A stretch of DNA of 64,000 bases from a virus. Below the pieces are notes generated by a model that saw only the letters and a program-made list of their open reading frames with translations, was not told where the DNA came from and did not search any database. The DNA is taken from the IMG/VR virus record IMGVR_UViG_3300025154_000006, positions 19,469-83,468 of that record. One strand, written 5' to 3'. The translations under genes and the position numbers were made by a program. Of the stretch, positions 1-62,134 are shown piece by piece; positions within the stretch are counted from its first letter, which is position 1; the number at the start of each line of letters is the position of its first letter.

Positions 1-178
1 ACGAAAGAGACGAAACAAGGGCGGTGCGAAAATGACTATAAATCTAGATTTTGATTTGCTGGCAGACGCTTTTCAGAATGCCAACATTTTGTGATCAATG
101 AAGTAAGCTGTTATCAAGAGGGCTGGATGAACGGACAAAAGCGAATTGTGAAGTTGGCATAACTAAAGGAGAGATAAC

Positions 179-343
179 ATGGAAGAACAACCGATTTGCG
201 AATGGCACGCTATTGATGTTGTTGGTGGAGAAGCCTGGGTATGGGCATCTACTCGGGAAGATGCTATTCAACAGGCTAGCGCAGTTCCCGGAATTATAGA
301 AATTGAGTATTGCGAACGGGTATATAATGAAAAATCCGCTTAG
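179..343 (+). CDS. small hypothetical phage protein (54 aa)
   Basis: AAGGAGA RBS then ATG at 179, open to TAG at 343; below the ORF-track cutoff. Confidence 0.55.
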   Translation: MEEQPICEWHAIDVVGGEAWVWASTREDAIQQASAVPGIIEIEYCERVYNEKSA

Positions 344-716
344 ACATTATCACACATGGTCAGAAATAGTGATCGGCCATGGACTTGCTGCAAAGTTACG
401 CATTTGCAAATGTGGCTATCAAGAAACATTTCTTTTTGACCGAACCAAACACGCCTTTGTATGGACGCCGGGCAATTTCTTAGAAGATTATACAAGTCAC
501 ATATTTGTTGTTGCTGGAACATACGAAACTTGGCTAAAATCTGTACAGTTTCTAAATGATACTTTCAAAGATACAGAAGTTCGACGAATAGAAGGAGAAT
601 ATGATCTCAACGAAATGTTGAAATTGATCGTTCCAAGGATATATCTTACAGAGGACTGGTTCGAGAGTGATTTAATTTCAAATCCGAAACTTAGGGTCAT
701 ACTTATGTATCGTTAG
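327..716 (+). CDS. hypothetical phage protein
   Basis: ORF track 303..716; ATG at 327 is the more likely start; sits in a tightly packed + strand run. Confidence 0.6.
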   Translation: MKNPLRHYHTWSEIVIGHGLAAKLRICKCGYQETFLFDRTKHAFVWTPGNFLEDYTSHIFVVAGTYETWLKSVQFLNDTFKDTEVRRIEGEYDLNEMLKLIVPRIYLTEDWFESDLISNPKLRVILMYR

Positions 717-728
717 GAGAGAAAACAA

Positions 729-1013
729 ATGAGAGGCATGCATTATTGCAAGAAACACAAAAGTAATTATTTCGATGGCGACGGTTGTCTAGATTGTTAT
801 TTTGAAAGGCTAGATAAAAAGGCCGCCACTATGTCGTTGCCAGACCGACTAGAAGACGAAGAACTCTATATCGATGCCGGTGACGAGGCCGCAGTTAAAC
901 TTAGACAACACTATGACTTTGTAGACACTATTCTTGGTCGTGTTTCTGCTGGCGATACGTTTATTCCGTTGTGGGTTTTTCAAAAAGCACAAACATTACA
1001 GAAAACGAGGTAA
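729..1013 (+). CDS. hypothetical protein with N-terminal Cys/His cluster
   Basis: AGGAGA RBS; CKKH...CLDC. Confidence 0.6.
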   Translation: MRGMHYCKKHKSNYFDGDGCLDCYFERLDKKAATMSLPDRLEDEELYIDAGDEAAVKLRQHYDFVDTILGRVSAGDTFIPLWVFQKAQTLQKTR

Positions 1014-1017
1014 GATA

Positions 1018-1314
1018 ATGGCAGAACAAGTTTACGGTGCCGAATGGTGGGATAAAAAGAAAAGGCGGTGGGGCAAATCTCTGCGCCTGCAATTTTCTGA
1101 TGATCTTTTTCGTGGCGATGACGAGTATTGGACATGTTTATGCGGCGGAATTGGCGACAAGTGGGGTGTTCAAACATTAAGAAGTTTGGCGCTACTTGGT
1201 GCGGCTGTAGTACTTGCGCATGAAGGCGAGATAGATTCTGGGATATTGCCACATTGTGTTCCAGCGCATATTCGCAACAAAATCAAAGAATTGTTGCCAG
1301 ACGAGAAAGAATGA
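1018..1314 (+). CDS. hypothetical protein
   Basis: GAGGT RBS, ATG at 1018 (MAEQVYG), stop overlaps the next start. Confidence 0.6.
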   Translation: MAEQVYGAEWWDKKKRRWGKSLRLQFSDDLFRGDDEYWTCLCGGIGDKWGVQTLRSLALLGAAVVLAHEGEIDSGILPHCVPAHIRNKIKELLPDEKE

Positions 1315-12854: not shown

Positions 12855-13292
12855 TTATGAAATATCCAGTGGCGTTGCGCTTAGGCATTGAAACACACAC
12901 TGTACCAAAGACCAGGCGCTTGGGCCCTCTACCATTACACCAAGAAGTTGCTCTGAAAACGAACCAAGCATTACCACATTATATACCTGTTCGCAGTGCG
13001 AAACCATGGTCAAAACATTTGACGGAGTTCCGTTTGGGTTGTTGAACGAAAAGAAGGTTCGTAAATCTTCAAGATTGCCAAAATTTTCTCTATTCTCTTC
13101 TTGCCTAACCCGAACAAGATATTCGTCTCTTTTATAAAGCCCACCGACTGCAATGTCAAGGCTTCCATCAAGGGTTTTGTCGATACTCTGAGACTTTTCG
13201 AGAATTGGTCTATATCCAGATAAAAGTACCTGAAAACGACGCGAAAAACTACCGTCGCTTGTTGTAAGAGTAAAATAATCATTGGTTGCCAT
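12855..13292 (-). CDS. distal tail (Dit-like) protein
   Basis: 145 aa directly after the tape measure; KTLDGSL motif. Confidence 0.55.
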   Translation of the reverse strand: MATNDYFTLTTSDGSFSRRFQVLLSGYRPILEKSQSIDKTLDGSLDIAVGGLYKRDEYLVRVRQEENRENFGNLEDLRTFFSFNNPNGTPSNVLTMVSHCEQVYNVVMLGSFSEQLLGVMVEGPSAWSLVQCVFQCLSATPLDIS

Positions 13293-16200
13293 TATGATCT
13301 TAGTTCCTGTGCTACTGCGTCAATAACAAATCTGGACAGGTGTTCGTTACCAAGATAAATGTTAATTGTTTGCTTTTTATCTTGCTTTACGGCATTGTTC
13401 AAGAGGTAGGTAGTGTCATTATACATTGTATCCTCGGTTTGATTTGACAAATAGGGATAGTTGACCGGAAGAGTATCTTTGGGTTGGCGCGGATCTTGCG
13501 GAGCAGGTTGAACAGGCGGCGGATTAGTTCCGGCCTCGTAAATTAAATTGATTTGATCTAATACTCCGGCAAGTCCGATCCGAAGCTTTTCCATTCCTTC
13601 ACCAGACAATGTGTTCAATTCGCCACCCATAGACATAATGGCAAGTTGCATCTGGAAAACAGCCTCTTCGTGTTCATGTGCGGCCCTGGCCTGTTCTTCT
13701 GCAAGAGCAAGCTGTTTTTGTTGTAGGGCGTATTGTTCCTTGGCATACCTTCGTTCTTCTGCAACTTGTTCTGCTTGTAACTTTTTCTGCTCTTCGTAAT
13801 ATTTCTTTTGAAGATCAAGTTGCTTTTGTTGCATTGCAAGAGATTCGAGCTGTTGTTTCTTTTGAAGATTAAAACGCTCGTCCTCAAGCTTCCAAAGTTC
13901 TTCTTGGCGCGCGCGTTGTTTCTCAATCTGGTCGCCTTCCATATTGTGCATGGTGGTCTCGCGACCCATTTTCCGTTCGGCCAATTTGCGTTGGCGCCCA
14001 GTCATAAAACGAGATTCTTCCGCAAAATCTTCTTGCTTCCATCCCCACTGCATATTGCGAAGTTGATCTTGATAGCCCCAATCTTCCTTGGCCCAGGTGC
14101 GCGTGAGGTTCATCTGGGTTTGTTGAATAGTATTGCCAATATTGATATTTGCCGCAGATTGGTTTATCTGTTCTTGTTGCAGACCAAACTGTTGTTGCTG
14201 ATACCAATTTGACAGGGCGATTTGCTTATCCTGAATCCCCCACATGGTCTGGGTATGAGCCCATCCCGATTGAAGTCCTTGTTGTTGCAACGCAAAGCCT
14301 TGTTGTTGGTATCCGTAACTTTGTTGCATCCAGCTATATTGTTCTCCCTGTATACCGCCAATAGACGTAATTTGGTTGGGTTGACCAGTAGCGGGATTGA
14401 TGCTTCCTAGCGTAATTGGCTGTGCAAGCTGAACGCCATTAACTGCGGCGTTAACAGAACGATTCTGTGTTGTCCCAAAAATATTCTGTCCCATTTGTTG
14501 CGAAGACAGACTGCCCATTTCTAAACCTGTTGTCCCATAAGGAAGTCCAGTTAGACGACCATTATTGGTGTCTGTCATTGCCAGATAGTTGGCATTGATA
14601 GTGTTGCCCTGCATGGTTCTGACACCGGGAAGTTGTCCCAGGTCCATACCGCCCAGGGCCAAGGTTGCCATGGCCATAGGGTCGCCACCAAGAGCACGAT
14701 TATAGAATTCTGCTTGCCCACCCGTCATTCCAGTCATTTGTGCATAGATTTTATTTCCGGTACTGGCATTGCCATAAAAGGTGCTTTTATCGTACTGGCT
14801 TTGTGCCATTCCGCGCACCTGCTCTGCGGCAAATGTAGACGCCGTAGCAGAAGCGGTAAGATTTGCGGCTTCTCGTGGCGACATTAAGGGCGATAATTTT
14901 GTTGGATCTACCGCAGTGGTCGATCTTCCAATTGCGGCATTTGCCATATATGCTTCTTGTTGTGCGCGAATAACATTTTCGGCAGGAGTACCAACAAATT
15001 TCGATAATGTGTCCTCGAATTTGATCAACAGATCGTTTATCTCTGTTTCTGTTCTTTGTCTTGCGCCTCCCGCCATTGTTGGACCCATTGGGTGCCCCTG
15101 CATATATTTAACGCCAGGCAACGATGTGGCAAATTCTGCGCCAGTTGTAATTGCAATTCTTTGTTCTTCTGGAATTTCTTTATCTGAAAGATAACGCGTA
15201 AGCGCGTCTGTTCTAAGGCTTCCTTTGCTGTCTCTTTGCCACGCAAACGTAGCGCCTCTTCCGGCGCCGGACAATATTGACTGGGCCAAATCCTGATCCC
15301 TGATCCCAAGATCCATTCCAGAAGCAAGTTTTTGTGTAAGGCTATTGTTAATTGTCCAATTTGGATTTCGCGCATACATAGCTTGGACGTTAGCAACTGC
15401 TTGTTGGGAGTAAATACTCATTCCCGGTTGTTCCATTAAAAGCCTGGTTCCGCCACTTATGGTTCCGGCCAGGCCGCCAGAACCACGTAGTTGTCTAAGT
15501 TGCTCAAATGTTGTACCGCCTTCAATTTGTTTACGGGCTTGTTCGTACCACGTTTCTCGTTCTTGATTTAGCGCACCGCGACTTCCGTCTTCAAATGTTC
15601 TTTCTCTGGCAAATGGCTTATATTTATAACCACCAGAAAACGTTTGCGCCAATACGTCATATGGTGCCAGGAAATATTGCTTTGCTTCGTCAAATTTCGA
15701 TAAGCGATAAGCAAGCGACTCTTGATCTTCCGTTTTCTGATATATCTGTGATCCGCCAGATACCACCGCGGTGGCAATTCCTACCGGAAGCGCCGCTTTA
15801 CCAAAGAATTTTGATGCAGTACTTCCTTTTCTAAAGGAATCGGCAATCCACTGAGTAGCGCCCCACGCACCTACGCCCGCCATTGCCGTTCCAAAGACAT
15901 CGCCAAGAACTGGATAATCTGCGGCCATGGTCTGCGCGGTTATAAGCGGATTGGCATTTGCGCCCATAAGTGCCTGTTTATTTAGCAATGCCATCTGTGG
16001 ACTGTAGACGGGTTGGCGAATACCAAAAGTTTGCGCGGCCTGAGCAGAAATGGCCTGATTTAGACCCATCGCCTGTTCTTGTCCCTGGCCCATTCCACCA
16101 GTAATGATGTTTCCAATAGAACGGAAATACATCAAACCAAAACCACTGAGCATTCGCCTGGCCGCACCGCCCATTGTATTCTCTTCGGCCATTGCCTCTT

Positions 16201-19200
16201 GCTCGAGCTTTTGCGTCATTCTTGCATTGTCTATTTTCTGCAAACGCCCTTGCAGAGTCCCAAGTTTTGTAACGTCTTCTTGCGTTAGTTGACCAGATGC
16301 AAGTTTGGTTTCGCCTTCCGACACTTGCTTTTTGAGATTTTCGTAGGCCATTTCTTGCCCAAGCCTGCGTTTTTGTTCTTGTACACCGCTTAGGGCTTTT
16401 TCTTCATCAACCAGTCCCTTAATGCGGTTTCCGTGTTTGTCGGATAATTTGCCAAGAAGATCGGCCTCTTCTTTTATTAAGCGGTTGTATTCTGCGCGTT
16501 GAGAACTGGTTCCGGTAACAAGTCCACCGCCGCTACCCTCTTTGAGCATATCGCCGGTTTTTAGTTTGTAAGCGTCTGTCAAATCTGCCAATTCGGTTTG
16601 CTGTTGGCCGATCAGATCTGGGCGTTCTTTCTTTATTTTTGCGGTAATGCCGAGATTTTCTCTTAGTATGGCTTTGTTTTGCGCAGCGGCTATGAACGGT
16701 TTCATTCTTTCAAGCCGCTCATCTATGGTTCCAGTTCTTTCGGGTCCAACAATGCCAGCTTTCGACATTCCAGTAAAGAGTTCCTGGAAAGTATTAGAAG
16801 TAACAAGTGCCTCTGACATTTCTGCTATGAAAGCGTTTTGCGCCATTCCGCTTGCGGTTCTACCGCGGCCAGCATCGCCAAGCTCCGTAATTGCTCTTTT
16901 GCCCTTATTGTCAGCATATGACGTGTTGAGATTTGCAATGGCGTCGCCCATATCAGGAAAACTTGTTTCTTTGTGTTCTTTTACACCAGAATACGCCAAT
17001 TGTTGCGCGTCTCTCAATAGACCGGCTTGTCGTAATGTTGGCCCGTGAATTCTAAGTAACCTATTGGCCTCTGCCGGATTCGTCAACCTTAATTGGTTTA
17101 TTCTTGCAGAAATATTCCTTGCCTCAAGTGCGCTTTCTCCCGCATTAAGTTCTGGGAACCCAAGATCGGTTAGAGACTTGTCCAGAGTACTAAAAGTTCC
17201 TCTAATCTGTTCAATACTATCCTGGTACATATTAGAGAAAGCGGCAAGCGCTTTACGGGCTTTGCTTGGTGAGGAAACAAAGCTTGGATATTTTCCACCA
17301 CCAGTCGCATCTTTACCGCCACTTCTTCCGCCAAAAGTACCCTCCGCAATAGCATCTACTGTGCGATCATACCCGATCCACCCCGTAGTGTTCCCTTCTT
17401 TGTCTTTAAGCGGAATATCGTGAGGCTTTTCGCCGCCAGCCAATATGGTTTGCTGTTCTTTTGTCTTCTTTGATGTAAGAACAGATTGTTCTTTGCCAAA
17501 CGGAATTTCTCTTGCCGACTCAAAATCAAAATTAGCGGCAAGGTTTGGATTGATTGCCGTACCAAGTCGTTGTAATTCTGGAATAAGCACATCTTTTTCT
17601 TTTTGCGTTAAGTTCGGATCATTGAGTTTCGCTTCAAGGCGATGCGATTTCTCTACGAGCGTCTCTTTGCCCTCGTTCGCACTGCGAACTGCGGAACTTA
17701 GTCTATCAAGCATTTGATTCTCACTAGACTTTGGATCGTAGCCAAGAATTTGCTGCATCTGTATACTTGTGGTTCCCGGCATTTGTGCGGAAGTTCGCGC
17801 TAATCTTCCGGCGCCAGCCGTATCTTCCGAAGTAACGTATTTGTTCTTTCTTGCAGAATAAACATCTTCTGTTCCAATTGCTTCCCATTGCGAATAAAGC
17901 GCATCTGCTTTTGCCTGATCACCACCAGTTATTTTCAGCGCGATTGTCTTCGCAAGTTCTTTTTCTTTATTTCCTTCTTTTGAGCCAACGGCACGACCAA
18001 AGAAACCAGCAAGAATTGGCATCTTTGTCATCAGTTCATTGCCCTTTTGCGTACCAAGAGAACGATATGTAGCAGAGATCCGCCTGACGAGGCGCATGCC
18101 CCATTGTCCCTTATCTGAAATCGCCTCAAGTTCAGATCGCAGCACGGCCTCGTCTTCTTCGCTTGTTCCAAACTTGTTTGCTATTGAAGCGGCGGAACGC
18201 GTGTAACTTCCATCGGAATATGGCGCAGTAGCATCCACGGCGGCCTGTTGCATAAAGTTTTGTAGGCCACCCGTGTCTATATTCTGTTCTTCTTTTCCGC
18301 CACCAGAGAACACGCGGTTTACTGGCGACCATTCTTTATCCCATCCTTGTGGTTTGGGGCGAGAATATCCAAAGAACTGTTCGCCCTTTTGATTTTCGCC
18401 AAATCTTATCGAGGAAAGTGCTTGCGAAAGATTGCTATCACCAAGTTCGGCGTAGTCTACACCAGTCATATACGAAGCTTCGTCGCTTACGTTTCCTTTC
18501 CTGCCAAGAAACTTATTTGCCGTAGCAAGAGTAAGCCCTACACTATATTCTTTACCAATGTGTTCAACTGGCATAGACTTACCAACTGCCTGTTTCCAAA
18601 CCTCGTTGTAGGGAAGAGTTGCCCGTTTTGCTATATTCTTTGCTGTTGGATCGACATTTCTAATCGCGTCTCTGGCGCTTTGAACGTAAGAGTTGAACCG
18701 ATTTGCTGTGTTTAAACTTGGAAACTTTGCCGCTTCTTTGCCACGAATAAATGCTACTTGGTCTTTTGGAAGAATATTATCGCCAAATGTCTTTAATATT
18801 TCTGGACCAAAAGTATCAAAGAAGAACTTTTGGTATTCTGTATCGTAATCTTTATCTCCCAACTGCCCTCTTCCTATGGCGCTACTTCCATAAATACCAT
18901 ATTGCGCTTCCATTTCTGGTCGTATTCTGTTCCAAACTTCTTTTCCGAGAAGAGTTCGCATTTCCCTAAACGGGATATTTATACCTGGCATAGGAGATTC
19001 GCCCGGGGCGGCAGGATCTCTTTGCGATGCCGTAACAATGCGTTTTTCTCTTAGAAATCTACTTACTTCTCTTTGCTGTACTTCTAAAGTACCTGCGGCG
19101 CGACGCGTCATGGGTTGCAGTAGTTTTTGCGTAGCATAACTTGTTCCTGGCGCTAGAAATGGCGCAGGATAGTCGCCACCGCGAATTGATAGCGGATCTT

Positions 19201-21937
19201 CTCTCTCCTGGGACTTTTTGATTAGCCCTTGATCTAGTCCGCGAATATGTTGCCACAATGCGTTTTGAGAACCAGACATGCGCCTTGTGTTTTGTGTATT
19301 TGTTCCAGGTTGCAACATTGATGTAGCAAGTTCCATAACAGCATTTGAGTAGCGACCGCCAATGCCACCAACGGGATTACCTTCAATGTCCAGATATTGT
19401 TCGTTTTCAACTGCGTTTGGATTTGGAACATAATCTTTTCCAAATCTTGGCATGGTGTTGACGTCTTCTGGGCCCAAACCAAGAATACTCCGCATTTTTC
19501 CGGGAAACTCTTCTGGCGGAATTTCCTGACCCTTAAGTGCAAAAAGCGCGGCGGCCTGGTCTTGCGTAACGTCAAGTGCGCTTGGATGCTGAACGGTTTC
19601 TTTGTCGTCGCGAATATCTTTTTGATATGCAACATAACTCAAAAGTCCTATGGCAGAAGCCTGACCGCGGGTAACTTTTCCTTTTTCGGATGGATCAAGT
19701 CCAACTCTTTTGGCAAGTGCGGGATCAAGTGCAGTCAAACCCTGTTGAAAGATAAGACTTGCGGTATGTTTTGCAGTTATATTGCTCATAATATGCGGAA
19801 TTGCAGCGCGGGAGAGTAGTCCGCCAGGAAAGTGTTCTGTAAGAATTGGCGTTAATCCGGCTTTCTTTTTGCCATACGTGTAGCGCTTATTGAAAACCTC
19901 TTCTATTTGCTCTTCCGACATACCGTCTTCAAGTCCAGCGCGTTTCCAGTCGTCTTTCAATAGCTTGAACTCGCCCGGGTGCATGGGCGTAACATCAAGA
20001 TCGCGCGGTCCCAAATAGCCCATACCACCAAGATCAAGATTTGCTTGATTAACTATTTCCTCGTCTTTATTTGCCAGGATTTGTTCGTCTACAAGTTTCG
20101 TGGCAAATCCAGAAGCGTCTAGATTGTATGCACCTGCACTTGCCAGTTTATCAAAATCAACCTGCACTGCCTTTCGATTTGCCCCAGAAGACATTTGCCT
20201 ATCGAATTCTGCAAGAGAAGCCGCGGCCATCTGTGCTTCTTTTGGATCTTGACGCGAGGCCGTCCACGCTTCGAGCAAATATCTTTGCTGTTGGTTTGTT
20301 TTGGCTTCCAGCAGACTAAGATTTAACCTGGGTGCTTTTGCTTCACTTGTATATAAATCGATATTTACATCTTGTCCACCAAGCCTGGCCCGATTGATCA
20401 TTCCTGTAGGCGCTTCAAGTCCTTTCCATCCGTGTCCGCGTCCACGATCAGACGCTATAGAGGTTGCTTCAAGCGAAACCATTGGCATTTCCACAGAGCC
20501 GATGGAATAAAGCATGTCTCTATTTGTATTTCTAAGTTGTTGGGCAAGTGCCGCCGTAGATTCGGCGCCCTCATCGCCGGGTTGCGCCCACTGTTTGGTA
20601 TTCGGATTCCACGCTTCTGGAATTGTCATACGCAACTTATTTCCAGCAGTAAAGAGTGGATTTTGTCCTTTCTGCGCCCTAAGGTCTATTGCCTCTTCTC
20701 CGAATTGCATTGTTCCCAAAGAGACTTCGCCAGCACCAAACTCAAACTCGGTTTGCTTTGTTCTGTTAAATCTTAGAGAATCACCGAGCAGCGCCTCTGG
20801 CGTAATTCTGTTTGACAGTTTGGTTTTTAGAAATTTGTCTGTTTCGCCACGTGCATCAACACGACTTCTGGAAGGATTGTAGAATCTGTAGGACGCGCCT
20901 GGTATTCCAGGCGCATCGCCAAATAGAACAGTTTCCATTTCCATTGGCTGTGTCTGTCCGCCATAACCAACTACGTTTGGAATACCATATTGTGGAAATG
21001 GATTATCTTCTGTGACGAATTCAGGTTTCCACTTTTCGTATCTAATACCATTTTCGTTTTGTACTCTACGAAGTGGTTGCGCCAGCGGACTTGCGCCACG
21101 CACAAGAGACGGTTTATAGATTGCACCTTTCATTCCCTCAATAAGAGAAACATCGTATCCGGTTGTAAATTGACCCTTTTTATTTATGCCCAGATGTCCA
21201 GCAACCGGCGCCAGGCTTCTATCTTTTGTTGGAAAATAAAGTCCGGTAAGAAGAGTGCCGAAGAACTTTTGTTGTGTTTCCGATTGTACTGGCAACTCGC
21301 CAAGAATTGTTCTGCGTATTGCATCAAATGTCTTTTCTTGACTAAATTTATCTGCTTTGGTTACAACGTCTACGGTTCGGATAAGAGATTCTCGGAACGC
21401 TAACGGCGAGTTCTTTGTAGGTCTTACGCCACTGGCAACGTGCGCCTGGCTAATGTCGCTTGCAAGTGTACGAAAAGTACTTGCCCACTCTTTGTTTTCC
21501 GAGGCGGCAATGTCCGCAGACGATCTAAGTCCTTCTCCTAGTCTTTGTGTCGAGGACAGACCAGCGACAATGAATTTTTCTCTTTGTGCTTTTTGGAAAT
21601 TTCTTTGTGCATCGTAACCAGCATCGCGCTCTGGAATATGCGATGCAAAAACGCCATGTCTGAATATAATACCATTAGTTCTTGCGTCTGGAACTTTACC
21701 CTGGATACCGCCAACTTCCCAAACAGAACCAAGGTCGGAAACGTTATGATGGATATTTACGTCCAAAAGGAGTCTGTTGTCTTTTGGCGCGCGTTCATAA
21801 TTGGCAGTTACACTTAGTTTTCTTCCCTCGTATCCATTGACCCAATCCGCGTTGAAGTCTTGTCCTAGAGACTCTCGTAAAGACCCTAGAACATCCGAGT
21901 TATATTGTTTGTTCCATTGGCTTCCAGAAGTAGCCAT
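13292..21937 (-). CDS. tail tape measure protein with putative N-terminal two-barrel RNA polymerase module
   Basis: 2881 aa between the chaperones and Dit; C-terminal half Ala/Gly/Gln-rich and helical with hydrophobic stretches; N-terminal half has DRGRGHGWKG (aa ~497-506), SIR..PFL (~917-928), RDP (~973) and DKDYD (~1028-1032). Confidence 0.75.
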   Translation of the reverse strand: MATSGSQWNKQYNSDVLGSLRESLGQDFNADWVNGYEGRKLSVTANYERAPKDNRLLLDVNIHHNVSDLGSVWEVGGIQGKVPDARTNGIIFRHGVFASHIPERDAGYDAQRNFQKAQREKFIVAGLSSTQRLGEGLRSSADIAASENKEWASTFRTLASDISQAHVASGVRPTKNSPLAFRESLIRTVDVVTKADKFSQEKTFDAIRRTILGELPVQSETQQKFFGTLLTGLYFPTKDRSLAPVAGHLGINKKGQFTTGYDVSLIEGMKGAIYKPSLVRGASPLAQPLRRVQNENGIRYEKWKPEFVTEDNPFPQYGIPNVVGYGGQTQPMEMETVLFGDAPGIPGASYRFYNPSRSRVDARGETDKFLKTKLSNRITPEALLGDSLRFNRTKQTEFEFGAGEVSLGTMQFGEEAIDLRAQKGQNPLFTAGNKLRMTIPEAWNPNTKQWAQPGDEGAESTAALAQQLRNTNRDMLYSIGSVEMPMVSLEATSIASDRGRGHGWKGLEAPTGMINRARLGGQDVNIDLYTSEAKAPRLNLSLLEAKTNQQQRYLLEAWTASRQDPKEAQMAAASLAEFDRQMSSGANRKAVQVDFDKLASAGAYNLDASGFATKLVDEQILANKDEEIVNQANLDLGGMGYLGPRDLDVTPMHPGEFKLLKDDWKRAGLEDGMSEEQIEEVFNKRYTYGKKKAGLTPILTEHFPGGLLSRAAIPHIMSNITAKHTASLIFQQGLTALDPALAKRVGLDPSEKGKVTRGQASAIGLLSYVAYQKDIRDDKETVQHPSALDVTQDQAAALFALKGQEIPPEEFPGKMRSILGLGPEDVNTMPRFGKDYVPNPNAVENEQYLDIEGNPVGGIGGRYSNAVMELATSMLQPGTNTQNTRRMSGSQNALWQHIRGLDQGLIKKSQEREDPLSIRGGDYPAPFLAPGTSYATQKLLQPMTRRAAGTLEVQQREVSRFLREKRIVTASQRDPAAPGESPMPGINIPFREMRTLLGKEVWNRIRPEMEAQYGIYGSSAIGRGQLGDKDYDTEYQKFFFDTFGPEILKTFGDNILPKDQVAFIRGKEAAKFPSLNTANRFNSYVQSARDAIRNVDPTAKNIAKRATLPYNEVWKQAVGKSMPVEHIGKEYSVGLTLATANKFLGRKGNVSDEASYMTGVDYAELGDSNLSQALSSIRFGENQKGEQFFGYSRPKPQGWDKEWSPVNRVFSGGGKEEQNIDTGGLQNFMQQAAVDATAPYSDGSYTRSAASIANKFGTSEEDEAVLRSELEAISDKGQWGMRLVRRISATYRSLGTQKGNELMTKMPILAGFFGRAVGSKEGNKEKELAKTIALKITGGDQAKADALYSQWEAIGTEDVYSARKNKYVTSEDTAGAGRLARTSAQMPGTTSIQMQQILGYDPKSSENQMLDRLSSAVRSANEGKETLVEKSHRLEAKLNDPNLTQKEKDVLIPELQRLGTAINPNLAANFDFESAREIPFGKEQSVLTSKKTKEQQTILAGGEKPHDIPLKDKEGNTTGWIGYDRTVDAIAEGTFGGRSGGKDATGGGKYPSFVSSPSKARKALAAFSNMYQDSIEQIRGTFSTLDKSLTDLGFPELNAGESALEARNISARINQLRLTNPAEANRLLRIHGPTLRQAGLLRDAQQLAYSGVKEHKETSFPDMGDAIANLNTSYADNKGKRAITELGDAGRGRTASGMAQNAFIAEMSEALVTSNTFQELFTGMSKAGIVGPERTGTIDERLERMKPFIAAAQNKAILRENLGITAKIKKERPDLIGQQQTELADLTDAYKLKTGDMLKEGSGGGLVTGTSSQRAEYNRLIKEEADLLGKLSDKHGNRIKGLVDEEKALSGVQEQKRRLGQEMAYENLKKQVSEGETKLASGQLTQEDVTKLGTLQGRLQKIDNARMTQKLEQEAMAEENTMGGAARRMLSGFGLMYFRSIGNIITGGMGQGQEQAMGLNQAISAQAAQTFGIRQPVYSPQMALLNKQALMGANANPLITAQTMAADYPVLGDVFGTAMAGVGAWGATQWIADSFRKGSTASKFFGKAALPVGIATAVVSGGSQIYQKTEDQESLAYRLSKFDEAKQYFLAPYDVLAQTFSGGYKYKPFARERTFEDGSRGALNQERETWYEQARKQIEGGTTFEQLRQLRGSGGLAGTISGGTRLLMEQPGMSIYSQQAVANVQAMYARNPNWTINNSLTQKLASGMDLGIRDQDLAQSILSGAGRGATFAWQRDSKGSLRTDALTRYLSDKEIPEEQRIAITTGAEFATSLPGVKYMQGHPMGPTMAGGARQRTETEINDLLIKFEDTLSKFVGTPAENVIRAQQEAYMANAAIGRSTTAVDPTKLSPLMSPREAANLTASATASTFAAEQVRGMAQSQYDKSTFYGNASTGNKIYAQMTGMTGGQAEFYNRALGGDPMAMATLALGGMDLGQLPGVRTMQGNTINANYLAMTDTNNGRLTGLPYGTTGLEMGSLSSQQMGQNIFGTTQNRSVNAAVNGVQLAQPITLGSINPATGQPNQITSIGGIQGEQYSWMQQSYGYQQQGFALQQQGLQSGWAHTQTMWGIQDKQIALSNWYQQQQFGLQQEQINQSAANINIGNTIQQTQMNLTRTWAKEDWGYQDQLRNMQWGWKQEDFAEESRFMTGRQRKLAERKMGRETTMHNMEGDQIEKQRARQEELWKLEDERFNLQKKQQLESLAMQQKQLDLQKKYYEEQKKLQAEQVAEERRYAKEQYALQQKQLALAEEQARAAHEHEEAVFQMQLAIMSMGGELNTLSGEGMEKLRIGLAGVLDQINLIYEAGTNPPPVQPAPQDPRQPKDTLPVNYPYLSNQTEDTMYNDTTYLLNNAVKQDKKQTINIYLGNEHLSRFVIDAVAQELRS

Positions 21938-21947
21938 TTATCTTCCT

Positions 21948-22370
21948 TTATCCAAGTCTGATCCATTGTGGATTTGCTTGCAAAACACATTCGATTATCT
22001 CGTCCGCAATAGGCAATGGCAACATTCCAAAAGCAAGATTAAATTCGCGTTCTGTCATTGAAATGCGGTTATTGTCAAAGACAAAAATTGGCTTATCGTT
22101 TTGATCTGCCAGGTTGCAATCTGCAAGTACTAGAAATACCTCTTTCCTGCGAATGTCATCTATAGAAATTGGCGAAGTAAACTTCACAACATCATCGTCA
22201 TAGTTTTGTTCTTTGACAACAAGAGAAAACATGTGGTTTCTTGTGTCAGCCTCGCCCTTTAGCGCAACACGGACAGATGCCCTAGACGGTTCGCCTTCAT
22301 TTTCAAATATTTCATCTGATTTTGAAAGAACGAACTCTTCTACTTGCGCCGGTCCAATTTTAATAGGCAT
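21948..22370 (-). CDS. tail assembly chaperone paralogue
   Basis: shares DDIRRKEVFL.LA.CN and overall layout with 22646..23062. Confidence 0.7.
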   Translation of the reverse strand: MPIKIGPAQVEEFVLSKSDEIFENEGEPSRASVRVALKGEADTRNHMFSLVVKEQNYDDDVVKFTSPISIDDIRRKEVFLVLADCNLADQNDKPIFVFDNNRISMTEREFNLAFGMLPLPIADEIIECVLQANPQWIRLG

Positions 22371-22385
22371 TGTTGATTTCCTTGT

Positions 22386-22658
22386 TTATCTTGATCGATT
22401 GGCATTGTCTAGCGCTTCATAAAGCGCTACTTCCTGGCTTATTGCCTCAAAGATGGCTATCCAGATGTACGGCTGATCCATTAGGCCACCAGCAAGCAAC
22501 GACAGACCAGAGCTTTTTACTGCTTCATACACTCTTAGTCTGTTTGGCTTGTATGGCATACTGGACCGTATACCTGCTTTTATTTCATTCATTGCGCCAA
22601 AATACTCGCGCAATTCAGTCCTGGTTTCCTCTAGTATTTCCCCAATTAGGCTTCCCCC
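22386..22658 (-). CDS. tail assembly chaperone, -1 frameshift extension (gpGT-like)
   Basis: ORF in the -1 frame overlapping the chaperone end at slippery GGGGGAA (22652..22658). Confidence 0.65.
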   Translation of the reverse strand, partial: GGSLIGEILEETRTELREYFGAMNEIKAGIRSSMPYKPNRLRVYEAVKSSGLSLLAGGLMDQPYIWIAIFEAISQEVALYEALDNANRSR

Positions 22659-23062
22659 ACTTTTTGCCAGACCACATTGCATTCTAGAATCTTCTCGTGG
22701 ATTTCATTGGCAATAAATGGGTAAAGTTGATCCCAGGCCTTCTTGAAAGATACCTCGTCAACAAGGTGGTCGTTCTGGAAGGTAAACAGCAGTTTTCCGT
22801 TTTCATCTTCAATATTGCAGGACGCCAGGGTCAAGAATACCTCTTTCCTGCGAATGTCATCAAACGATAGGCGCTGATGGATAATTGTCTTTGCGCCCTC
22901 GACTTCTCGAATGTACTCTGACCAAAGTTCATTGCGGGCTTCAACTGCGCCCTGGGTGGCGAGATGAACTTCGATCATCGTAGGTGTCTCTGACTTGAAC
23001 TCTTCATCGCTTTTATCAAGTCGGTATGATGTCTTTGTGGCTGGTTGTAATTTCAATGGCAT
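22646..23062 (-). CDS. tail assembly chaperone (gpG-like)
   Basis: between the tail tube and tape measure; AGGAG RBS; ends G GGG GAA GCC TAA. Confidence 0.75.
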   Translation of the reverse strand: MPLKLQPATKTSYRLDKSDEEFKSETPTMIEVHLATQGAVEARNELWSEYIREVEGAKTIIHQRLSFDDIRRKEVFLTLASCNIEDENGKLLFTFQNDHLVDEVSFKKAWDQLYPFIANEIHEKILECNVVWQKVGEA

Positions 23063-23107
23063 TTTCGTTTTTCTCCTAGATTAGTTCGCATTGCGAACCG
23101 TAGATGT

Positions 23108-23137
23108 CCGAGGGGAGTTTTTGTTTCCTCCCCTCGG
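23108..23137. terminator. GC-rich hairpin after the major tail gene
   Basis: CCGAGGGGAG/CTCCCCTCGG 10-bp stem; no clear U-tract on the minus strand. Confidence 0.45.
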
Positions 23138-23153
23138 TTGAAACAACTAAGAA

Positions 23154-24218
23154 CTAGACGGGCCAGACGTAACTTGCAACCTTGTTGCGAAGCTTCATGG
23201 TCGCATAAGTTCCGGTACCCTCGATGATCGTTCCCTGGAACCTCATCATCACGGCTTGTCCAGCGGCCAAGCGGATACCACCAACCTGAGTCATCATGGC
23301 GTCTGCGGCTTCAACTTGCAGGGAATAGGGTTCAGCCAAAGACGGCATATTCTTTGCAGAAACCATTTTCGCATCGAATGAACCAACCATTGGCTCGCCA
23401 CTCCAGACAGTACCAGACGAAGAACCAGTTAGAACTTCGCGATAAAGATCAGGATCGTTGTACTTCACGATAATGTCGAAGGCCAACTGCCGCGAAAGAA
23501 TGGTCACATCGTCCAGGGCAGGAGAACCATAAACGCGCTCGGCACGAGGATCGAGAGGCTGATTAGTCCAGGCAAACGAAGCGCCAGCGATAGGCAGGGT
23601 AACTCCGCCAATCTTGAGGTGGCCACCAGTCATACAGGCCACAGGAATAGACTGCCAATCCTCGAATGTGTTAGCATAGCTAAACAAAGTAGGATCGGTA
23701 TCAAGCTCGAAAGTACGGCCAATCACGTCCACGCGAGCGGTTAGGGGCGCATCGGTGGGCATTTGGAAACCAAGACCAAGAACTTTACAGTCTGTATAGG
23801 TTTCGCCAAGATCGGTAGTGGCAACGCCATCTTTGCGAGGAATAACTTTGCGGAACGTCATCCACGGAACATACGATGCGTCAGTACTCAACATCTCGAA
23901 AGTATGTTCGTAAATGCCAGAATCGGACGGATCATCATCTGCGACGCTAGTACACTTTCCCATAGCGCCATACAGAAGCCATCCGAAAGTATCTTGCAGG
24001 CGAGGCTGTAAAACAGCGCCTCCGCCTATGATGTAACCAGCCTTATAGGGAAAGGTTGGCACAGGGACGCCGCCAACTTCGAGTTGACCCAACCGAACAT
24101 CGTCATTGATGCTCAGGTCAATGTCAACCGCGCGATGGCGATAGAACGTAGTAGCGGTAACTCCCTTAGCGGTTTGAGGACCGAATGAGAGGATCCCGGC
24201 GGCACTCGTGAGGGCCAT
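23154..24218 (-). CDS. major tail (tube) protein
   Basis: 354 aa, strong RBS, biased codons, YEHTF motif, upstream of the chaperones. Confidence 0.8.
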   Translation of the reverse strand: MALTSAAGILSFGPQTAKGVTATTFYRHRAVDIDLSINDDVRLGQLEVGGVPVPTFPYKAGYIIGGGAVLQPRLQDTFGWLLYGAMGKCTSVADDDPSDSGIYEHTFEMLSTDASYVPWMTFRKVIPRKDGVATTDLGETYTDCKVLGLGFQMPTDAPLTARVDVIGRTFELDTDPTLFSYANTFEDWQSIPVACMTGGHLKIGGVTLPIAGASFAWTNQPLDPRAERVYGSPALDDVTILSRQLAFDIIVKYNDPDLYREVLTGSSSGTVWSGEPMVGSFDAKMVSAKNMPSLAEPYSLQVEAADAMMTQVGGIRLAAGQAVMMRFQGTIIEGTGTYATMKLRNKVASYVWPV

Positions 24219-24285
24219 TAAGAACTCCTTCTGTCATAAGACAGAGAATAAAGAACGAATAATTGCAGAGGTTCGTAGTGCGAAC

Positions 24286-24831
24286 TCATGGTCGCTCCGT
24301 GAAGACTACCCAGAACACCTTCCCGCGGAAGATGTAACTGTTTGGAGGTCCGCCCGTCTCAAAGTAGGTATTTGCATAGCAGTGTGGATTTCCAACAGCC
24401 AACTCGCCATAGTCATCCGAACCCATATTCTCAAGTGGAGTAGATTCGATATTTGACATTACACGGCCAAGCAGGTCATAACCATACTGGTGAGCAGTCA
24501 CCTCATTGATTTGCTTATGAAGAAAGAACGCATCTACTTTTACTACGCCACGCCTCATCCACGTTTGGCCGCCGCCTATTTCTCGGGCAGGAAAGACCAT
24601 AGAAAGGTTTGGCAGTTTTTCGAGAGTAACAATACCGTCTTGCTGGTCGGGTAATTCGTGGTCGCCGCCCTGAACACCGATTTGGATGTTCTGACGGGTT
24701 TTGTTTTCCACAAGCAAACCCATCTTTACCAGACTGGCGCGAACTGGATCATCTGTAGCGACGTTAGTGATCAACGTTTCGGTAAGATGAGTAACCAGTG
24801 CGTCTATAACCATGTAGACGATTTGCGACAT
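24286..24831 (-). CDS. neck / tail terminator-like protein
   Basis: position between adaptor and tail tube. Confidence 0.55.
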   Translation of the reverse strand: MSQIVYMVIDALVTHLTETLITNVATDDPVRASLVKMGLLVENKTRQNIQIGVQGGDHELPDQQDGIVTLEKLPNLSMVFPAREIGGGQTWMRRGVVKVDAFFLHKQINEVTAHQYGYDLLGRVMSNIESTPLENMGSDDYGELAVGNPHCYANTYFETGGPPNSYIFRGKVFWVVFTERP

Positions 24832-25499
24832 TAATTCCTCGTTTGCATAGGCAGAGAATTAAGTTCATTCTCAAAACGGGCAAGAAAGAAGTTTGAGAGA
24901 TCCTTTGCAGGAAGATCAACGGGTTGCCCGGAGTCGACTTTCGTTTTGTACTGTGCAATATCACCTTGCTCCACTGCTGATTTCAGCAGACAATAGGAGG
25001 CGGCAAACAATGTCACAGCCGTAATAGTCATTTCCGGGCACTCCAAGGTTTCATCGTCGTCTTCTGGAAGTTCCCAGTGCGCAAGATAGTAGACTTTTGC
25101 TCCATCTGCCGCTAGTTCGTTCACAAAAGTAATTCCATTCGGGTAATTGATCCAGGCGTTTGCGTTGGTCATAGACGTGGATAACACCTGACCTGTCTGG
25201 AAACCGATACGAGGGATGAACATTGACGTTTCGTTCTCAAAAACTCCTTCGACATCCAAGAGATCAGAGGGTAGAGAAAAGTTCGTACCTGCCTCCTCGA
25301 TCTCGTAGATAGTCGTTTTCCAAATGCGACTTGAAATTCGCTTCAATGCGGCATGAACGGCATCTTTCAAGATGTCGGCATCGTAGATACCGCCACCCAC
25401 GGGAGATGGATTGGATGGGTCATCATCTTCCACTACGGCAACAATGTCGCCAAGTAGACGAAGAACCTTCAACTTTACATCATAGAAAGAAGCCGTCAT
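24831..25499 (-). CDS. head-tail adaptor protein
   Basis: directly after the capsid gene; LRLLGD...FSLPSDLL pattern. Confidence 0.65.
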   Translation of the reverse strand: MTASFYDVKLKVLRLLGDIVAVVEDDDPSNPSPVGGGIYDADILKDAVHAALKRISSRIWKTTIYEIEEAGTNFSLPSDLLDVEGVFENETSMFIPRIGFQTGQVLSTSMTNANAWINYPNGITFVNELAADGAKVYYLAHWELPEDDDETLECPEMTITAVTLFAASYCLLKSAVEQGDIAQYKTKVDSGQPVDLPAKDLSNFFLARFENELNSLPMQTRN

Positions 25500-25515
25500 G
25501 CTACACCTTTACGAA

Positions 25516-26205: not shown

Positions 26206-26221
26206 CGTTTTTGTTACTTTC

Positions 26222-26230
26222 TGTTATAAT
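26222..26230 (+). promoter_or_regulatory. extended -10 promoter for the intron endonuclease
   Basis: TGTTATAAT (TGnTATAAT) ~45 nt upstream of the ATG, with AAGGAG RBS. Confidence 0.55.
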
Positions 26231-26274
26231 AAGGTCGGTATTTATTTGACAACCACATTCTCAAGGAGTAAAAC

Positions 26275-26784: not shown

Positions 26785-26956
26785 CTCTGCAACTTCTTAT
26801 TAGTTGCAGACCAGACTATCGTTTCACTTTTCAGTGTCTCTTCGCTTAGTCGTTGCTGCTGCACAGGATTTTTCCTTGCTTGCATCGGGTTGCCATCACA
26901 GGTTTTCCCGTTATTCAGAAGAGATTTTTAGTCGGCAGTTAGTTTAGGTACTGTTT

Positions 26957-39515: not shown

Positions 39516-39827
39516 TCAGTATGTGCGATAATTGCACTTGGTATTCTCGCACCAAATGTCTTTTCCGTTGGTTGTCAACTTGTTCACAAGGCCGATCTTC
39601 TGACATTTAGGACATATTTTGTCAAGATACCAACAGGTTTTTGCTGAGTTCGCACTGCGAAGCGGATTAAATATCTTTTCTCTGCATTCCTCGCAAAGCG
39701 GAACAAAAATGCCTAAATTGCTTTGCTCCATTATGGCGTCTTTTTTGAAGATCGCTTTCTTGCAAACGGTGCAAATAACCGGAGAATGATCAATTAGAAA
39801 TTGTACAAATTTATTAATCGGGTTCAT
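39516..39827 (-). CDS. Cys-rich zinc-finger protein
   Basis: several CxxC pairs; start MNPINK at 39827 after GGAGG. Confidence 0.55.
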   Translation of the reverse strand: MNPINKFVQFLIDHSPVICTVCKKAIFKKDAIMEQSNLGIFVPLCEECREKIFNPLRSANSAKTCWYLDKICPKCQKIGLVNKLTTNGKDIWCENTKCNYRTY

Positions 39828-40575
39828 TTTCGACAACCTCCACCAACATATTTTCTGCCATCGGAACCAACGCGAGTCTTTTGGCGGCATATTTTTTCTT
39901 AAGAGTTAGAGATATTTTATCACGGGTTTCTTGAGAAACAATTTTTCCTTTTTGTGCCCTAGATATCTTCAGGCGCGCCTCGAGTGATACGGTTTTGCCT
40001 TTTTGCGCCAATGACATCTTGGCGCGCGCTTCTTCGGAAGCGCGTTTTTCATTATGGTTTTTATTCCCAGTTAAAGCAAGAGACATTTTCATACAGGTTT
40101 CTTCCGAGTGATGTTTTCCAAGCATACCTCTTTTATGTCCTTTTAGCGCCCGCGATATTTTCTCGCGGGTTTCGACGGATACGTTTTTCCTTGCGAGAGA
40201 CATTTTCTCGCGGGTTTCAAAAGACAAATGTTTTCCAATATTCGCAAGAGACATCTTTAAGCGAGATTCTTCTGTGTGTCTTGTTCCTAGTTTGCTATAT
40301 GCTTTTTTGCAAATATTGTATTCTGGACAAACACTGTCTATATAATACTGTTCTCGTTCGACCAGTTGCTCTTTCTCGCATTCTTCGAGAATAGAAAACT
40401 CAAAATTTTCTTCACCATACTTATTCCAGGCAGATTGAAGATGACGACTATGGTGTTTTGTTCTTTTTAAGAGAGAAACATGCTCATTCCACCGTCTATC
40501 AATATTAATGGCAGATCCGATATATATTTTTTCGTTAATCACATTCCTTATTTGATAGATGCCTATAAGAATCAT
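39814..40575 (-). CDS. GIY-YIG homing endonuclease with NUMOD3 repeats
   Basis: GIYQI...IYIGSA...RW.EH; repeated H(S/T)EETR.KMS. Confidence 0.92.
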   Translation of the reverse strand: MILIGIYQIRNVINEKIYIGSAINIDRRWNEHVSLLKRTKHHSRHLQSAWNKYGEENFEFSILEECEKEQLVEREQYYIDSVCPEYNICKKAYSKLGTRHTEESRLKMSLANIGKHLSFETREKMSLARKNVSVETREKISRALKGHKRGMLGKHHSEETCMKMSLALTGNKNHNEKRASEEARAKMSLAQKGKTVSLEARLKISRAQKGKIVSQETRDKISLTLKKKYAAKRLALVPMAENMLVEVVENEPD

Positions 40576-60854: not shown

Positions 60855-61457
60855 ATGAACGAAGCATCTGTACGATTGGCTTTACACCACGCCTTGCAAT
60901 GGAGAGGATACTGGCCTAAACACGATAGCGATGGACGCAAATACCCTGTACCATGCGTAAAGTGTCATCGCGTGAATTGGCTTATGGTAACGCCAGAGAT
61001 CAAAGGTTTGCCAGACACCAATGGTCGTCATCCGCGGTTTCCTTCTCCACTGATTGAAGTCAAGGCGGTAAAAGCCACCGAACGATCCTTTGCTTTCAAT
61101 TCTATTACTCCCGAACAAAGAGAGTATTTGTCTGCCTGGGCAAAAGAAGGTGGCGGTAGTTATCTTTGTCTAGGTAAGATTGTGCCTATGGGAAGCAAAG
61201 AAAAGATACGCCAAATTTTAGTTATCCCTTGGTTGGAATGGCTAAAAATTGAGGATAATTATGACAAAAGTATTCCCTGGGATTATGCTCTTTACGAAAA
61301 GCAACCATCTCTACCACGGCAAAGCGATTTTATGAGTTTGGTATTCTCATGGTGGCATTTAGTTCGCACTGCGAACGAATGGCATTTTCCTGACGATCAT
61401 CCGCTTTCGGTTATACCTGAAATCGAAACGCCGTTTTTCAAGAAAGGCAAATTATGA
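60855..61457 (+). CDS. PD-(D/E)xK nuclease, RecU/Holliday junction resolvase-like
   Basis: MNE.., GLPD, LIEVK, ITPEQREYL..W...GG. Confidence 0.75.
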   Translation: MNEASVRLALHHALQWRGYWPKHDSDGRKYPVPCVKCHRVNWLMVTPEIKGLPDTNGRHPRFPSPLIEVKAVKATERSFAFNSITPEQREYLSAWAKEGGGSYLCLGKIVPMGSKEKIRQILVIPWLEWLKIEDNYDKSIPWDYALYEKQPSLPRQSDFMSLVFSWWHLVRTANEWHFPDDHPLSVIPEIETPFFKKGKL

Positions 61458-62134
61458 CTAGTGGAATTTATCAAATAAAGAATAAGGTAAACAATAAGAT
61501 ATATATTGGCCAAGCCATCAACTTAAGTAAAAGAAAAGCCGAACATTGGAGTTGCCTGCGAGGTAAATACCATTACAATTCTCATCTACAGCGTGCCTGG
61601 GATAAATACGGCGAAGAAAATTTTAGATTTATAATATTGCTTTGTTGCGAATCGGCAGAATTGTCTTATTATGAACAAGTGTTGGTAAATTTATTAAATC
61701 CGAAATATAATATTCAAAAAGAGTGTACAACTAGTCCGTTAGGAACAAAACTTTCCAAAGAACACAAGGCAAAAATCTCAAAAAGCCTTAAGGGAATTAA
61801 GCGCTCTCAACAAACTAGAGAAAAAATTTCAAGATGTCGTAAAGGAATAATATTTTCAGATGAACATAAGAGGCACTTACGTGAAAATCATGTCGGTAAT
61901 TTAGGTAAGCATTGTTCTGAAGAAACAATACAAAAAATGGCCCTTGCTCAGAAAGGCGACAAGAATCACATGTTTGGTAAACATATTTCCGAGGAGCATA
62001 AACAAAAAATATCAATGTCTAACAAAGGTAACAAAAGGTTACTGGGATATAAACAATCGGATGAACACAGAAGACATATATCAGAATCTATGTTAGCGAG
62101 ACAAAATGAAACCAGAACCCAAGAAGATACATAG
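61454..62134 (+). CDS. GIY-YIG homing endonuclease with NUMOD3 repeats
   Basis: SGIYQIKN...IYIGQA; repeated SEEHK.KIS. Confidence 0.92.
   Translation: MTSGIYQIKNKVNNKIYIGQAINLSKRKAEHWSCLRGKYHYNSHLQRAWDKYGEENFRFIILLCCESAELSYYEQVLVNLLNPKYNIQKECTTSPLGTKLSKEHKAKISKSLKGIKRSQQTREKISRCRKGIIFSDEHKRHLRENHVGNLGKHCSEETIQKMALAQKGDKNHMFGKHISEEHKQKISMSNKGNKRLLGYKQSDEHRRHISESMLARQNETRTQEDT

Follow-up and report, generated by a model that had tools for sequence, protein, structure and literature searches.

Is the giant tape measure protein of a phage also an RNA polymerase (RNAP)? The question is raised by a gene of 2,881 amino acids (aa) in the IMG/VR virus record IMGVR_UViG_3300025154_000006. It lies within the 64,000-nucleotide (nt) stretch analysed here (the window), which corresponds to bases 19469-83468 of the complete 83,468-bp record; the record has 127-bp direct terminal repeats. 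In the N-terminal half of the protein, the original prediction recognised four motifs as those of a divergent two-barrel RNAP fused to the tape measure, and this first reading was supported. Based on residue conservation and the predicted fold, the tape measure protein is probably, over its N-terminal ~1,400 residues, a single-chain two-barrel RNAP, which would be injected to start phage transcription.

All four motifs were present, in order and at the residues originally given, apart from a 3-nt slip in the end of GDKDYD, which lies at 18859 and not at 18856. The gene and the parts of its product that bear on the polymerase are as follows (window positions; DPBB, double-psi beta-barrel).

13292..21937, minus strand: protein P0001, 2,881 aa, in the tape-measure position, based on one open frame and the gene order.
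21149..21937, minus strand: N-terminal region, aa 1-263; its first 100 aa show 21-40 identities across 8 closer homologues.
19772..21148, minus strand: beta-like (second-largest-subunit-like) half with a helical insertion, aa 264-722, based on VIA-align matches to beta-type subunits; the alignment with QDE-1 also covers this region.
20420..20449, minus strand: basic loop DRGRGHGWKG, aa 497-506, containing R500-x4-K505, based on family conservation.
20336..20344, minus strand: E-A-K, aa 532-534, another conserved acidic/basic pair in the beta-like half, based on family conservation.
17849..19609, minus strand: beta-prime-like (largest-subunit-like) half, aa 777-1363, based on VIA-align matches to largest subunits.
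18824..19195, minus strand: DPBB A, aa 915-1038, with SIRGG, RDP and DKDYD, based on matches to 7dvc_A and 7dbo_B.
19154..19189, minus strand: SIRGGDYPAPFL, aa 917-928, the motif first compared with beta-prime.
19013..19024, minus strand: R-x-P motif QRDP, aa 972-975, based on conservation of R973 and P975.
18842..18859, minus strand: predicted metal-binding DxDxD motif GDKDYD, aa 1027-1032, based on family conservation.

The DxDxD motif occurs once in the 2,881 residues. The range assigned originally to the polymerase, 18800..21937 (aa 1-1046), falls within the conserved N-terminal module but was too short, as the module ends at about aa 1400 (nt 17738).

To place these motifs in a family, homologues were collected. 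When 1.84 billion representative proteins were searched exhaustively by phmmer, aa 1-1200 gave 10 matches at E ≤ 1e-3: the query protein, 8 giant homologues (2,869-3,421 aa, 23-38% identity) and P0011, a repeat protein. A word-indexed protein search returned only the protein itself with the query alone, and only P0004 and P0012 when the full-length alignment A1 was used. Scanning IMG/VR with A1 yielded 25 loci, brought in by the C-terminal region. A giant open reading frame (ORF; 2,525-3,722 aa) was present in 24 of these, and 23 of the 24 had DxDxD within their first 1,800 residues. Every homologue found was a fused giant; a stand-alone form of 625-2,396 aa was found neither in the word-indexed search with alignment A2 nor in the exhaustive phmmer search.

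Conservation was counted over 31 aligned non-redundant members, about 15-39% identical to this protein. Removed before counting were L009 (equal to L008 in ORF coordinates, length, motif and hidden Markov model (HMM) scores), L019 (all ORFs shorter than 2,400 aa), P0002 (identical to P0001), the duplicates P0004 (L002) and P0012 (L021), and P0011. The last of these, a 2,099-aa repeat protein, matches the query over aa 1083-1145 only, in 22 separate stretches (E 8.5e-12), and the motifs are absent from its alignment.

Within the first ~1,700 residues, 27 positions carry one residue in at least 75% of the 31 members, among them K505, K534, R973, P975, G1027, D1028, D1030, D1032, Y1156 and D1161. 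In the DxDxD column, D1030 was found in all 31 members and D1028 and D1032 in 30 each, with G1027 in 27. The R-x-P motif, located 55 residues ahead of D1028, retains P975 in 31/31 and R973 in 27/31. In the basic loop, R500 is basic in 23 members, and K505 is Lys in 28 and basic in 30. K534 is Lys in 29 members, with E532 acidic in 25, and Y1156 and D1161 are each kept in 29. The residues of the DxDxD, R-x-P and HGxKG motifs are therefore kept across 31 diverged homologues, and three of the four motifs (DRGRGHGWKG, QRDP and GDKDYD) fall on the family's few conserved positions. The fourth, SIRGGDYPAPFL, is not conserved in sequence across the family, but it is located on the first strand of the DPBB-matching barrel. 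Nor is DKDYD unusual, as had been suggested: it is one variant of a loop whose x positions vary freely (DLDSD, DDDGD, DFDRD, DFDAD and others). From the Asp content of this protein, 0.31 DxDxD motifs would be expected by chance, so that the single motif is unremarkable. Across the family, 35 were observed against 9.0 expected, 30 of them in one alignment column, and it is through this conservation in one set of aligned columns that the motif exceeds chance.

The conserved positions were then compared with the catalytic signature of known enzymes. Eight residues are invariant in all two-barrel RNAPs, according to the parts of Ruprich-Robert and Thuriaux (PMC2919709) drawn on here. In QDE-1 they are D709, R738, K743, R962, P964, D1007, D1009 and D1011; the yeast Pol II counterparts are Rpb2 D837, K979 and K987 together with Rpb1 R446, P448 and the three Asp of DFDGD (PMC2919709). 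Seven of the eight were matched by the family's best-conserved positions. The spacing of 5 between R500 and K505 equals that between R738 and K743 of QDE-1 (PMC2919709). With R500 and K505 conserved as basic residues at the QDE-1 spacing, DRGRGHGWKG fits a beta-type basic loop as originally read; likewise QRDP fits R-x-P and GDKDYD the catalytic DxDxD.

The fold of aa 201-1400 was predicted with AlphaFold2 from the 31-row alignment A3 without templates (model residue n is protein residue n+200). The mean predicted local distance difference test score (pLDDT) was 84.0 and the predicted template-modelling score (pTM) 0.77. In a Foldseek search of the PDB, all 50 matches listed were RNAP chains; QDE-1 2j7n_A ranked first (E 4.7e-4, probability 0.87, 903 columns), followed by bacterial beta-prime chains and the non-virion RNAP of phage AR9. 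In a second look with VIA-align, the best 50 were all RNAP largest subunits (Rpb1, A190, C160, beta-prime and that of African swine fever virus (ASFV)), with Z scores of 9.0-10.0. These alignments comprised 235-420 residues with model ranges within 570..1166, mostly ~577..1163, and so extended to model residue ~1163 (aa ~1363), where the model is helical; in this superfamily, a bridge helix and a trigger loop follow barrel A. A wide VIA-align pass over 48,161 PDB representatives, made without Foldseek, gave 9 chains with Z ≥ 8, all of them RNAPs and headed by 7ob9_A (Z 9.5).

The two halves of the model matched different subunits. Barrel A matched the designed minimal DPBB 7dvc_A (Z 7.7, root-mean-square deviation (rmsd) 2.3, 85/87 residues) over model 715..838, that is aa 915-1038, and the VAT DPBB 7dbo_B matched the same region (Z 7.4). 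Second-largest subunits aligned to the first half of the model (model 64..522): the bacterial beta subunit 6j9e_C (Z 5.8, 267 residues, model 67..520 against chain 702..1281), Pol I A135 4c2m_B (Z 5.5, model 64..522) and 8qma_A (Z 6.0, model 69..518), which from its chain length is probably a plastid beta subunit. These matches fit the beta-then-beta-prime order on one chain that had been read from the motifs, with beta-type subunits on the first half and largest subunits on the second. The predicted fold firmly supports a beta-prime-like barrel. The second, beta-like barrel is supported less well, reasonably but not decisively.

Among single chains, the best match was QDE-1 7y7p_A (Z 8.7), in which 304 residues were aligned over both barrels (model 63..978 against chain 658..1136). 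ZmRDR2 followed (Z 7.5, model 68..961), and then the phage enzymes P23-45 gp96, in two entries (8h2m_A, Z 6.9, rmsd 5.7, 231 residues, model 65..961 against chain 470..1042; 8h2n_A, Z 6.8, model 48..957), and P74-26 gp62 (8f5m_A, Z 6.9, 187 residues). The lead of QDE-1 (Z 8.7) and ZmRDR2 (Z 7.5) over gp96 and gp62 (Z 6.9) suggests another possibility, namely that the tape measure delivers a two-barrel polymerase with a different job: an RNA-dependent RNAP of the QDE-1/RDR2 type, a primer-making enzyme or a PolD-type DNA polymerase. Neither template nor product is fixed by the fold or the catalytic residues. Moreover, in the parts of Chaban et al. (PMC10770324) drawn on here, the eukaryotic RNA-interference RNAPs are placed together with the phage single-subunit RNAPs in one clade, and both barrels are common to PolD. 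Against this, differences in Z of less than 1-2 are near ties, and the phage enzymes of the clade described as tested, gp96 and gp64 (PMC10770324) and YonO (PMC5467207, in the part used here), are DNA-dependent RNAPs. The genome also already encodes a DnaG-type zinc-finger primase-like protein, a DnaB-like helicase and a DNA polymerase exonuclease subunit. A different polymerase activity was accordingly considered unlikely.

The likeness to QDE-1 and plant RDR2 (PDB 2J7N, 7Y7P, 7W84) extends to the arrangement of the motifs, with R-x4-K in barrel B (R738/K743 in QDE-1, R500/K505 here) and R-x-P plus DxDxD in barrel A. The distance between the barrels, however, is 468 residues here compared to 219 in QDE-1. 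Unlike the present protein, QDE-1 and RDR2 are eukaryotic cellular enzymes that use RNA or single-stranded DNA templates and are neither virion proteins nor fused to a tape measure.

The barrel region alone also drew other folds. DPBBs of expansins, barwin-like proteins, kiwellin, a viral chitosanase and Cdc48/VAT N-domains matched aa ~915-1060 with Z 5.3-7.7, which would fit a cell-wall-acting or structural DPBB (expansin, barwin-like, RlpA/MltA-type or AAA+ N-domain) that resembles an RNAP at the fold level only. Lytic domains are common in tape measure proteins. The gp96 tape measure, for one, bears a metallopeptidase (PMC10770324). Such single-DPBB matches, however, span only ~80-100 residues, compared to 235-420 for the RNAP largest subunits (Z 9-10) and both halves for QDE-1, and the 50 Foldseek matches listed from the PDB included nothing other than RNAP chains. 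R-x-P, DxDxD and the basic loop in combination are, in addition, an RNAP signature (PMC2919709). An origin of the barrel match in such a domain was considered very improbable, leaving a two-barrel RNAP as the preferred reading of the N-terminal module.

Whether this module is part of a tape measure protein was addressed from the gene order and the remainder of the protein. The 2,881-aa gene occupies the tape-measure slot of a siphovirus-type tail module. On the minus strand, the order is tail tube, two small ORFs, the 2,881-aa gene and a large tail ORF of 1,281 aa, and the order of tube, small ORFs, giant gene and large ORF was repeated in the 7 related loci examined. Farther upstream, this strand carries an SU10-adaptor-like gene and a gene for the portal (SPP1_portal, E 6e-11; 532 aa). 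This gene order, typical of siphovirus tails, places the protein in the tape-measure position, so that the position originally assigned to the gene was confirmed by its neighbours. The features concerned are as follows.

23154..24218, minus strand: tail tube gene, upstream of the tape measure gene; Pfam Phage_tube_2 at 28.7 bits (cut-off 27) and phrog_290 at E 3e-11.
21948..23062, minus strand: two small ORFs, of 138 and 140 aa, plus a third that overlaps in the -1 frame; a chaperone-like slot, by position alone.
16238..17737, minus strand: linker, aa 1401-1900, gap-rich and poorly conserved (many gaps and low identity in the alignment).
15728..16165, minus strand: conserved Gly-rich hydrophobic segments, aa 1925-2070, a candidate membrane-inserting part of the tape measure.
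13538..14740, minus strand: Q/E/K/R-rich C-terminal tape-measure region, aa 2400-2800, the best-conserved part of the whole protein.

Hydropathy maxima occur at aa 1929, 2010 and 2044, and a GGFGLMY block is conserved. In the whole protein, Pfam detected no lytic or peptidase domain. In the C-terminal region, aa 2601-2700 show 52-64 identities per 100 in the homologue alignment. The small ORFs between tube and tape measure matched no Pfam or PHROG family. The 138-aa ORF (window 22386..23062, minus strand) ends TGG CAA AAA GTG GGG GAA GCC TAA and shares part of its length with a 98-aa ORF in the -1 frame, a layout like that of a tail chaperone G/GT frameshift and hence a candidate for one.

Several results weigh against a tape-measure-fused RNAP. 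The first group concerns sequence, as no method linked the family to any known RNAP. Among 24 members of A2, Pfam found an RNAP family in 0/24 (nine unrelated single matches were returned, E 0.007-0.29), and profile A2 gave only two chance matches to PDB sequences (E 0.38 and 2.3). The hhalign comparison of A2 with gp96 1-1200 was not significant (E 0.51, probability 0.1), although it did pair GDxDxD with DFDGD. Pfam Rpb1_2 (PF00623) and Rpb2_6 (PF00562) did not match anywhere in the genome, while controls were positive. The family itself is loosely bound at this end: an N-terminal HMM built from the nine closest sequences was significant in 15/24 giant IMG/VR ORFs with filters off and in 5/24 with default filters. 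The 9/24 that were not significant even with filters off were aligned by C-terminal homology, size, gene order and motifs.

The second group concerns the beta-like half. The Z scores of 5.5-6.0 for beta-type subunits lie within the range that VIA-align calls common, and aa 401-780 folded alone (pLDDT 76.8) gave no RNAP or DPBB match. For this piece, the best Foldseek E was 0.064, the whole-model pass of the wide VIA-align search gave 0 chains with Z ≥ 5, and the best re-aligned row (Z 5.0) consisted of helices only. Prediction of DPBB folds around the motifs, proposed originally as a check, thus succeeded for barrel A (Z 7.7 on aa 915-1038); for the beta-like half it gave matches in the whole model and none when folded alone. 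The basic loop was in blocks of pLDDT 87-88 in the whole model and below 50 in the beta-like piece alone. A loop that is confident only in the whole model would fit its packing against the other barrel.

The tape-measure identity, thirdly, rests on gene position. The 2,881-aa protein gave 0 matches in Pfam, PHROGs or PDB sequences, and no tape-measure family among them. In the ESM Atlas, aa 1881-2881 gave weak leads only, to tape-measure clusters (0.86-0.88), and aa 1-1400 gave no usable match. The gene, aa 1-1200 and aa 1881-2881 likewise found no match among 50,697 phage records by megablast and tblastn.

Finally, the eighth invariant residue is ambiguous and one member lacks DxDxD. The eighth is the barrel-B Asp (Rpb2 D837; QDE-1 D709), which helps to bind the second Mg (PMC2919709); the candidates here are E456, acidic in 16/31, and E532. 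The member without DxDxD, L018 (3563-11137, plus strand; 2,525 aa), has GGIDDPE in its place, R for K505 and G for K534, and judging from these residues its polymerase module may be inactivated. The loss in L018, an eighth acidic residue that is not clearly present and the fact that no phage promoter was identified for a polymerase of this kind would all suit a relic, a formerly active polymerase now serving as a bulk or assembly domain without catalysis. However, at an overall identity of ~15-20%, no positions are better conserved than the catalytic residues, and this holds in 30/31 members. Conservation that is best at catalytic residues points to selection on catalysis, and little credence was given to a relic.

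For an active two-barrel RNAP, we infer the catalysis, its template and product, the presence of the protein in the virion and the timing of its action as follows. The beta-like half (~aa 264-722, with the R500/K505 loop) and the following beta-prime-like half (~aa 777-1363) would form the polymerase, with the barrel at aa 915-1038 carrying R973-x-P975 and D1028-x-D1030-x-D1032. The remainder, with its variable linker, Gly-rich hydrophobic segments and conserved C-terminal region, would be the tape measure proper. By analogy with P23-45 gp96, the protein would be built into the tail and, at infection, be ejected through the tail tube. Its C-terminal part may then form or line a channel in the cell envelope, and the N-terminal polymerase would act on the incoming DNA to transcribe the first phage genes without the host polymerase. 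As no second phage RNAP was found, transcription of later genes would pass to the host enzyme.

The precedent invoked originally, a tape-fused virion RNAP in Thermus phage P23-45, is confirmed by the parts of Chaban et al. 2024 (PMC10770324) drawn on here: gp96 (PDB 8H2M, 8H2N; also in P74-26, G20c and TSP4) is a virion two-barrel RNAP fused to the tape measure N-terminus, with a clamp-less 'flat' architecture, and it transcribes pre-early genes. Like gp96, the present protein is a giant in the tape-measure slot with its polymerase N-terminal (here aa ~1-1400) and membrane-type segments farther on. In both, the beta-like barrel precedes the beta-prime-like one, and a single DxDxD is preceded by R-x-P (in gp96, FRNP at 741 and DFDGD at 779). 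The structural match is modest, with the Z of 6.9 being lower than that of QDE-1. Unlike gp96, the protein has its DxDxD at aa 1028 compared to 779, a module of ~1,400 aa compared to ~1,200, a total length of 2,881 aa compared to 5,002, and no metallopeptidase domain that Pfam could find. There was also no detectable sequence similarity (phmmer and tblastn found nothing, and the hhalign E was the 0.51 given above). Because no sequence homology to gp96 was found, the protein was classed as one that would work like gp96 and not as a member of the gp96 sequence family. Two further differences from P23-45 are that no second RNAP like gp64 was found in the genome and that the probable host lineage differs, given the Leptolinea-binned relatives described below.

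Other diverged enzymes share parts of this plan. YonO of SPbeta, gp66 of phi14:2 (a crAss-like phage) and P23-45 gp64 / P74-26 gp62 are also single chains in which barrel B comes first and barrel A second, and with highly diverged sequences they are identified chiefly through DxDxD (PMC10770324). In contrast to the present protein, YonO and gp64 are free non-virion enzymes, and gp66, from the virion of a podovirus-like crAss phage, is not a tape measure. YonO and phi14:2 gp66 were absent among the structure-search matches listed, which does not show dissimilarity. With the multisubunit enzymes (beta-prime/Rpb1 and beta/Rpb2) the likeness is that largest subunits give the highest Z and that the motif pairings first proposed fall on the right structural elements. 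The differences are a single, far smaller chain without other subunits, and a family that the Pfam Rpb1 and Rpb2 models miss.

A search of BFVD with the model ranked first a protein of Microcystis phage MaMV-DC (E 1.5e-11), which from its length is probably ORF65L (1,677 aa). A 'minor tail protein' of an uncultured siphovirus ranked second (E 3.4e-7), and lower rows included a crAss-like 'putative RNA polymerase' (E 1.1e-3) and giant-virus RNAP subunits. In MaMV-DC (KF356199), ORF65L (1225-6258, minus strand) has QRTP at 1315 and GDADGD at 1352, 37 residues apart. In a second protein, ORF82L (3,560 aa; 18653-29335, minus strand), QRSP is found at 2477 and GDFDGD at 2537. Two two-barrel RNAPs that have escaped annotation may thus be encoded by this cultured cyanophage, in one case within a giant protein.

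The remainder of the genome was inspected for a second polymerase and for promoters. Besides the tape measure, ORFs longer than 433 aa are limited to the 1,281-aa tail ORF, a 537-aa ORF and the 532-aa portal, and the largest other ORF bearing DxDxD has 343 aa. By ORF size, DxDxD, PF00623 and PF00562, no second phage RNAP was found, although a very diverged or split enzyme is possible. Counting k-mers across the genome for a phage promoter motif gave a single strongly repeated word, the 15-bp palindrome GTTCG(C/T)AnT(G/A)CGAAC. It represents the genome's most repeated 11-mer family and has 34 copies at ≤2 mismatches in the 83.5-kb genome, 9/34 of them intergenic. Copies in the window include those at 17675, 23084, 28941, 44879, 48177, 54109 and 61362, and one copy lies inside the tape measure gene. 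Since it is scattered through the genes of every module, the palindrome was rejected as the promoter of this polymerase. TTGAC boxes were seen in the genome, and the palindromes at 48177 and 58797 lie ~10 nt upstream of a TTGAC(T/A) box.

Further genes noted were an RNA ligase (genome 18145..18951), an N6/N4 DNA methylase (genome 51312..52076) and a SPASM-domain enzyme (genome 54372..55442), as well as two GIY-YIG + NUMOD3 homing-endonuclease genes at window 39814..40575 (minus strand) and 61454..62134 (plus strand).

Among genome contigs, the tape measure family had three matches, relatives of the C-terminal region (L029-L031), and all three are located on contigs binned with metagenome-assembled genomes (MAGs) of 'uncultured Leptolinea sp.' (Anaerolineae, Chloroflexota), which hints at Leptolinea / Anaerolineae as the host lineage. 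One of these, L031, on a 66,957-bp contig, encodes a 3,442-aa ORF with GDNDAD at 1232 and is a 32nd family member.

No tape-measure-fused RNAP outside the P23-45 group was found in the literature listings and abstracts searched, although the supplementary survey of viral two-barrel RNAPs in that paper (PMC10770324) may list more. The present proteins look like a new, sequence-orphan family of tape-measure-fused RNAPs. Tentatively, tape-tethered injection of an RNAP could be the standard start-up of a whole clade of so far uncultured siphovirus-type phages with genomes of ~83 kb, whose hosts are probably Anaerolineae (Chloroflexota), and not a Thermus quirk, with this enzyme as the sole phage RNAP and a direct handover to the host enzyme. 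As no detectable sequence is shared with gp96 and the structure lies no nearer to gp96 than to QDE-1, the fusion could be of independent origin.

If this is true, a second family of at least 31 diverged members (32 with L031) would make tape measures a recurrent vehicle for the first transcription enzyme, and many metagenomic 'giant tape measures' would hide polymerases unseen by HMM libraries, as in this family, where 0/24 members showed a Pfam RNAP. It also raises the question of how an enzyme of ~155 kDa would pass through the tail tube and then refold. The family would offer very diverged, minimal two-barrel polymerases in which to study what the catalytic core needs.

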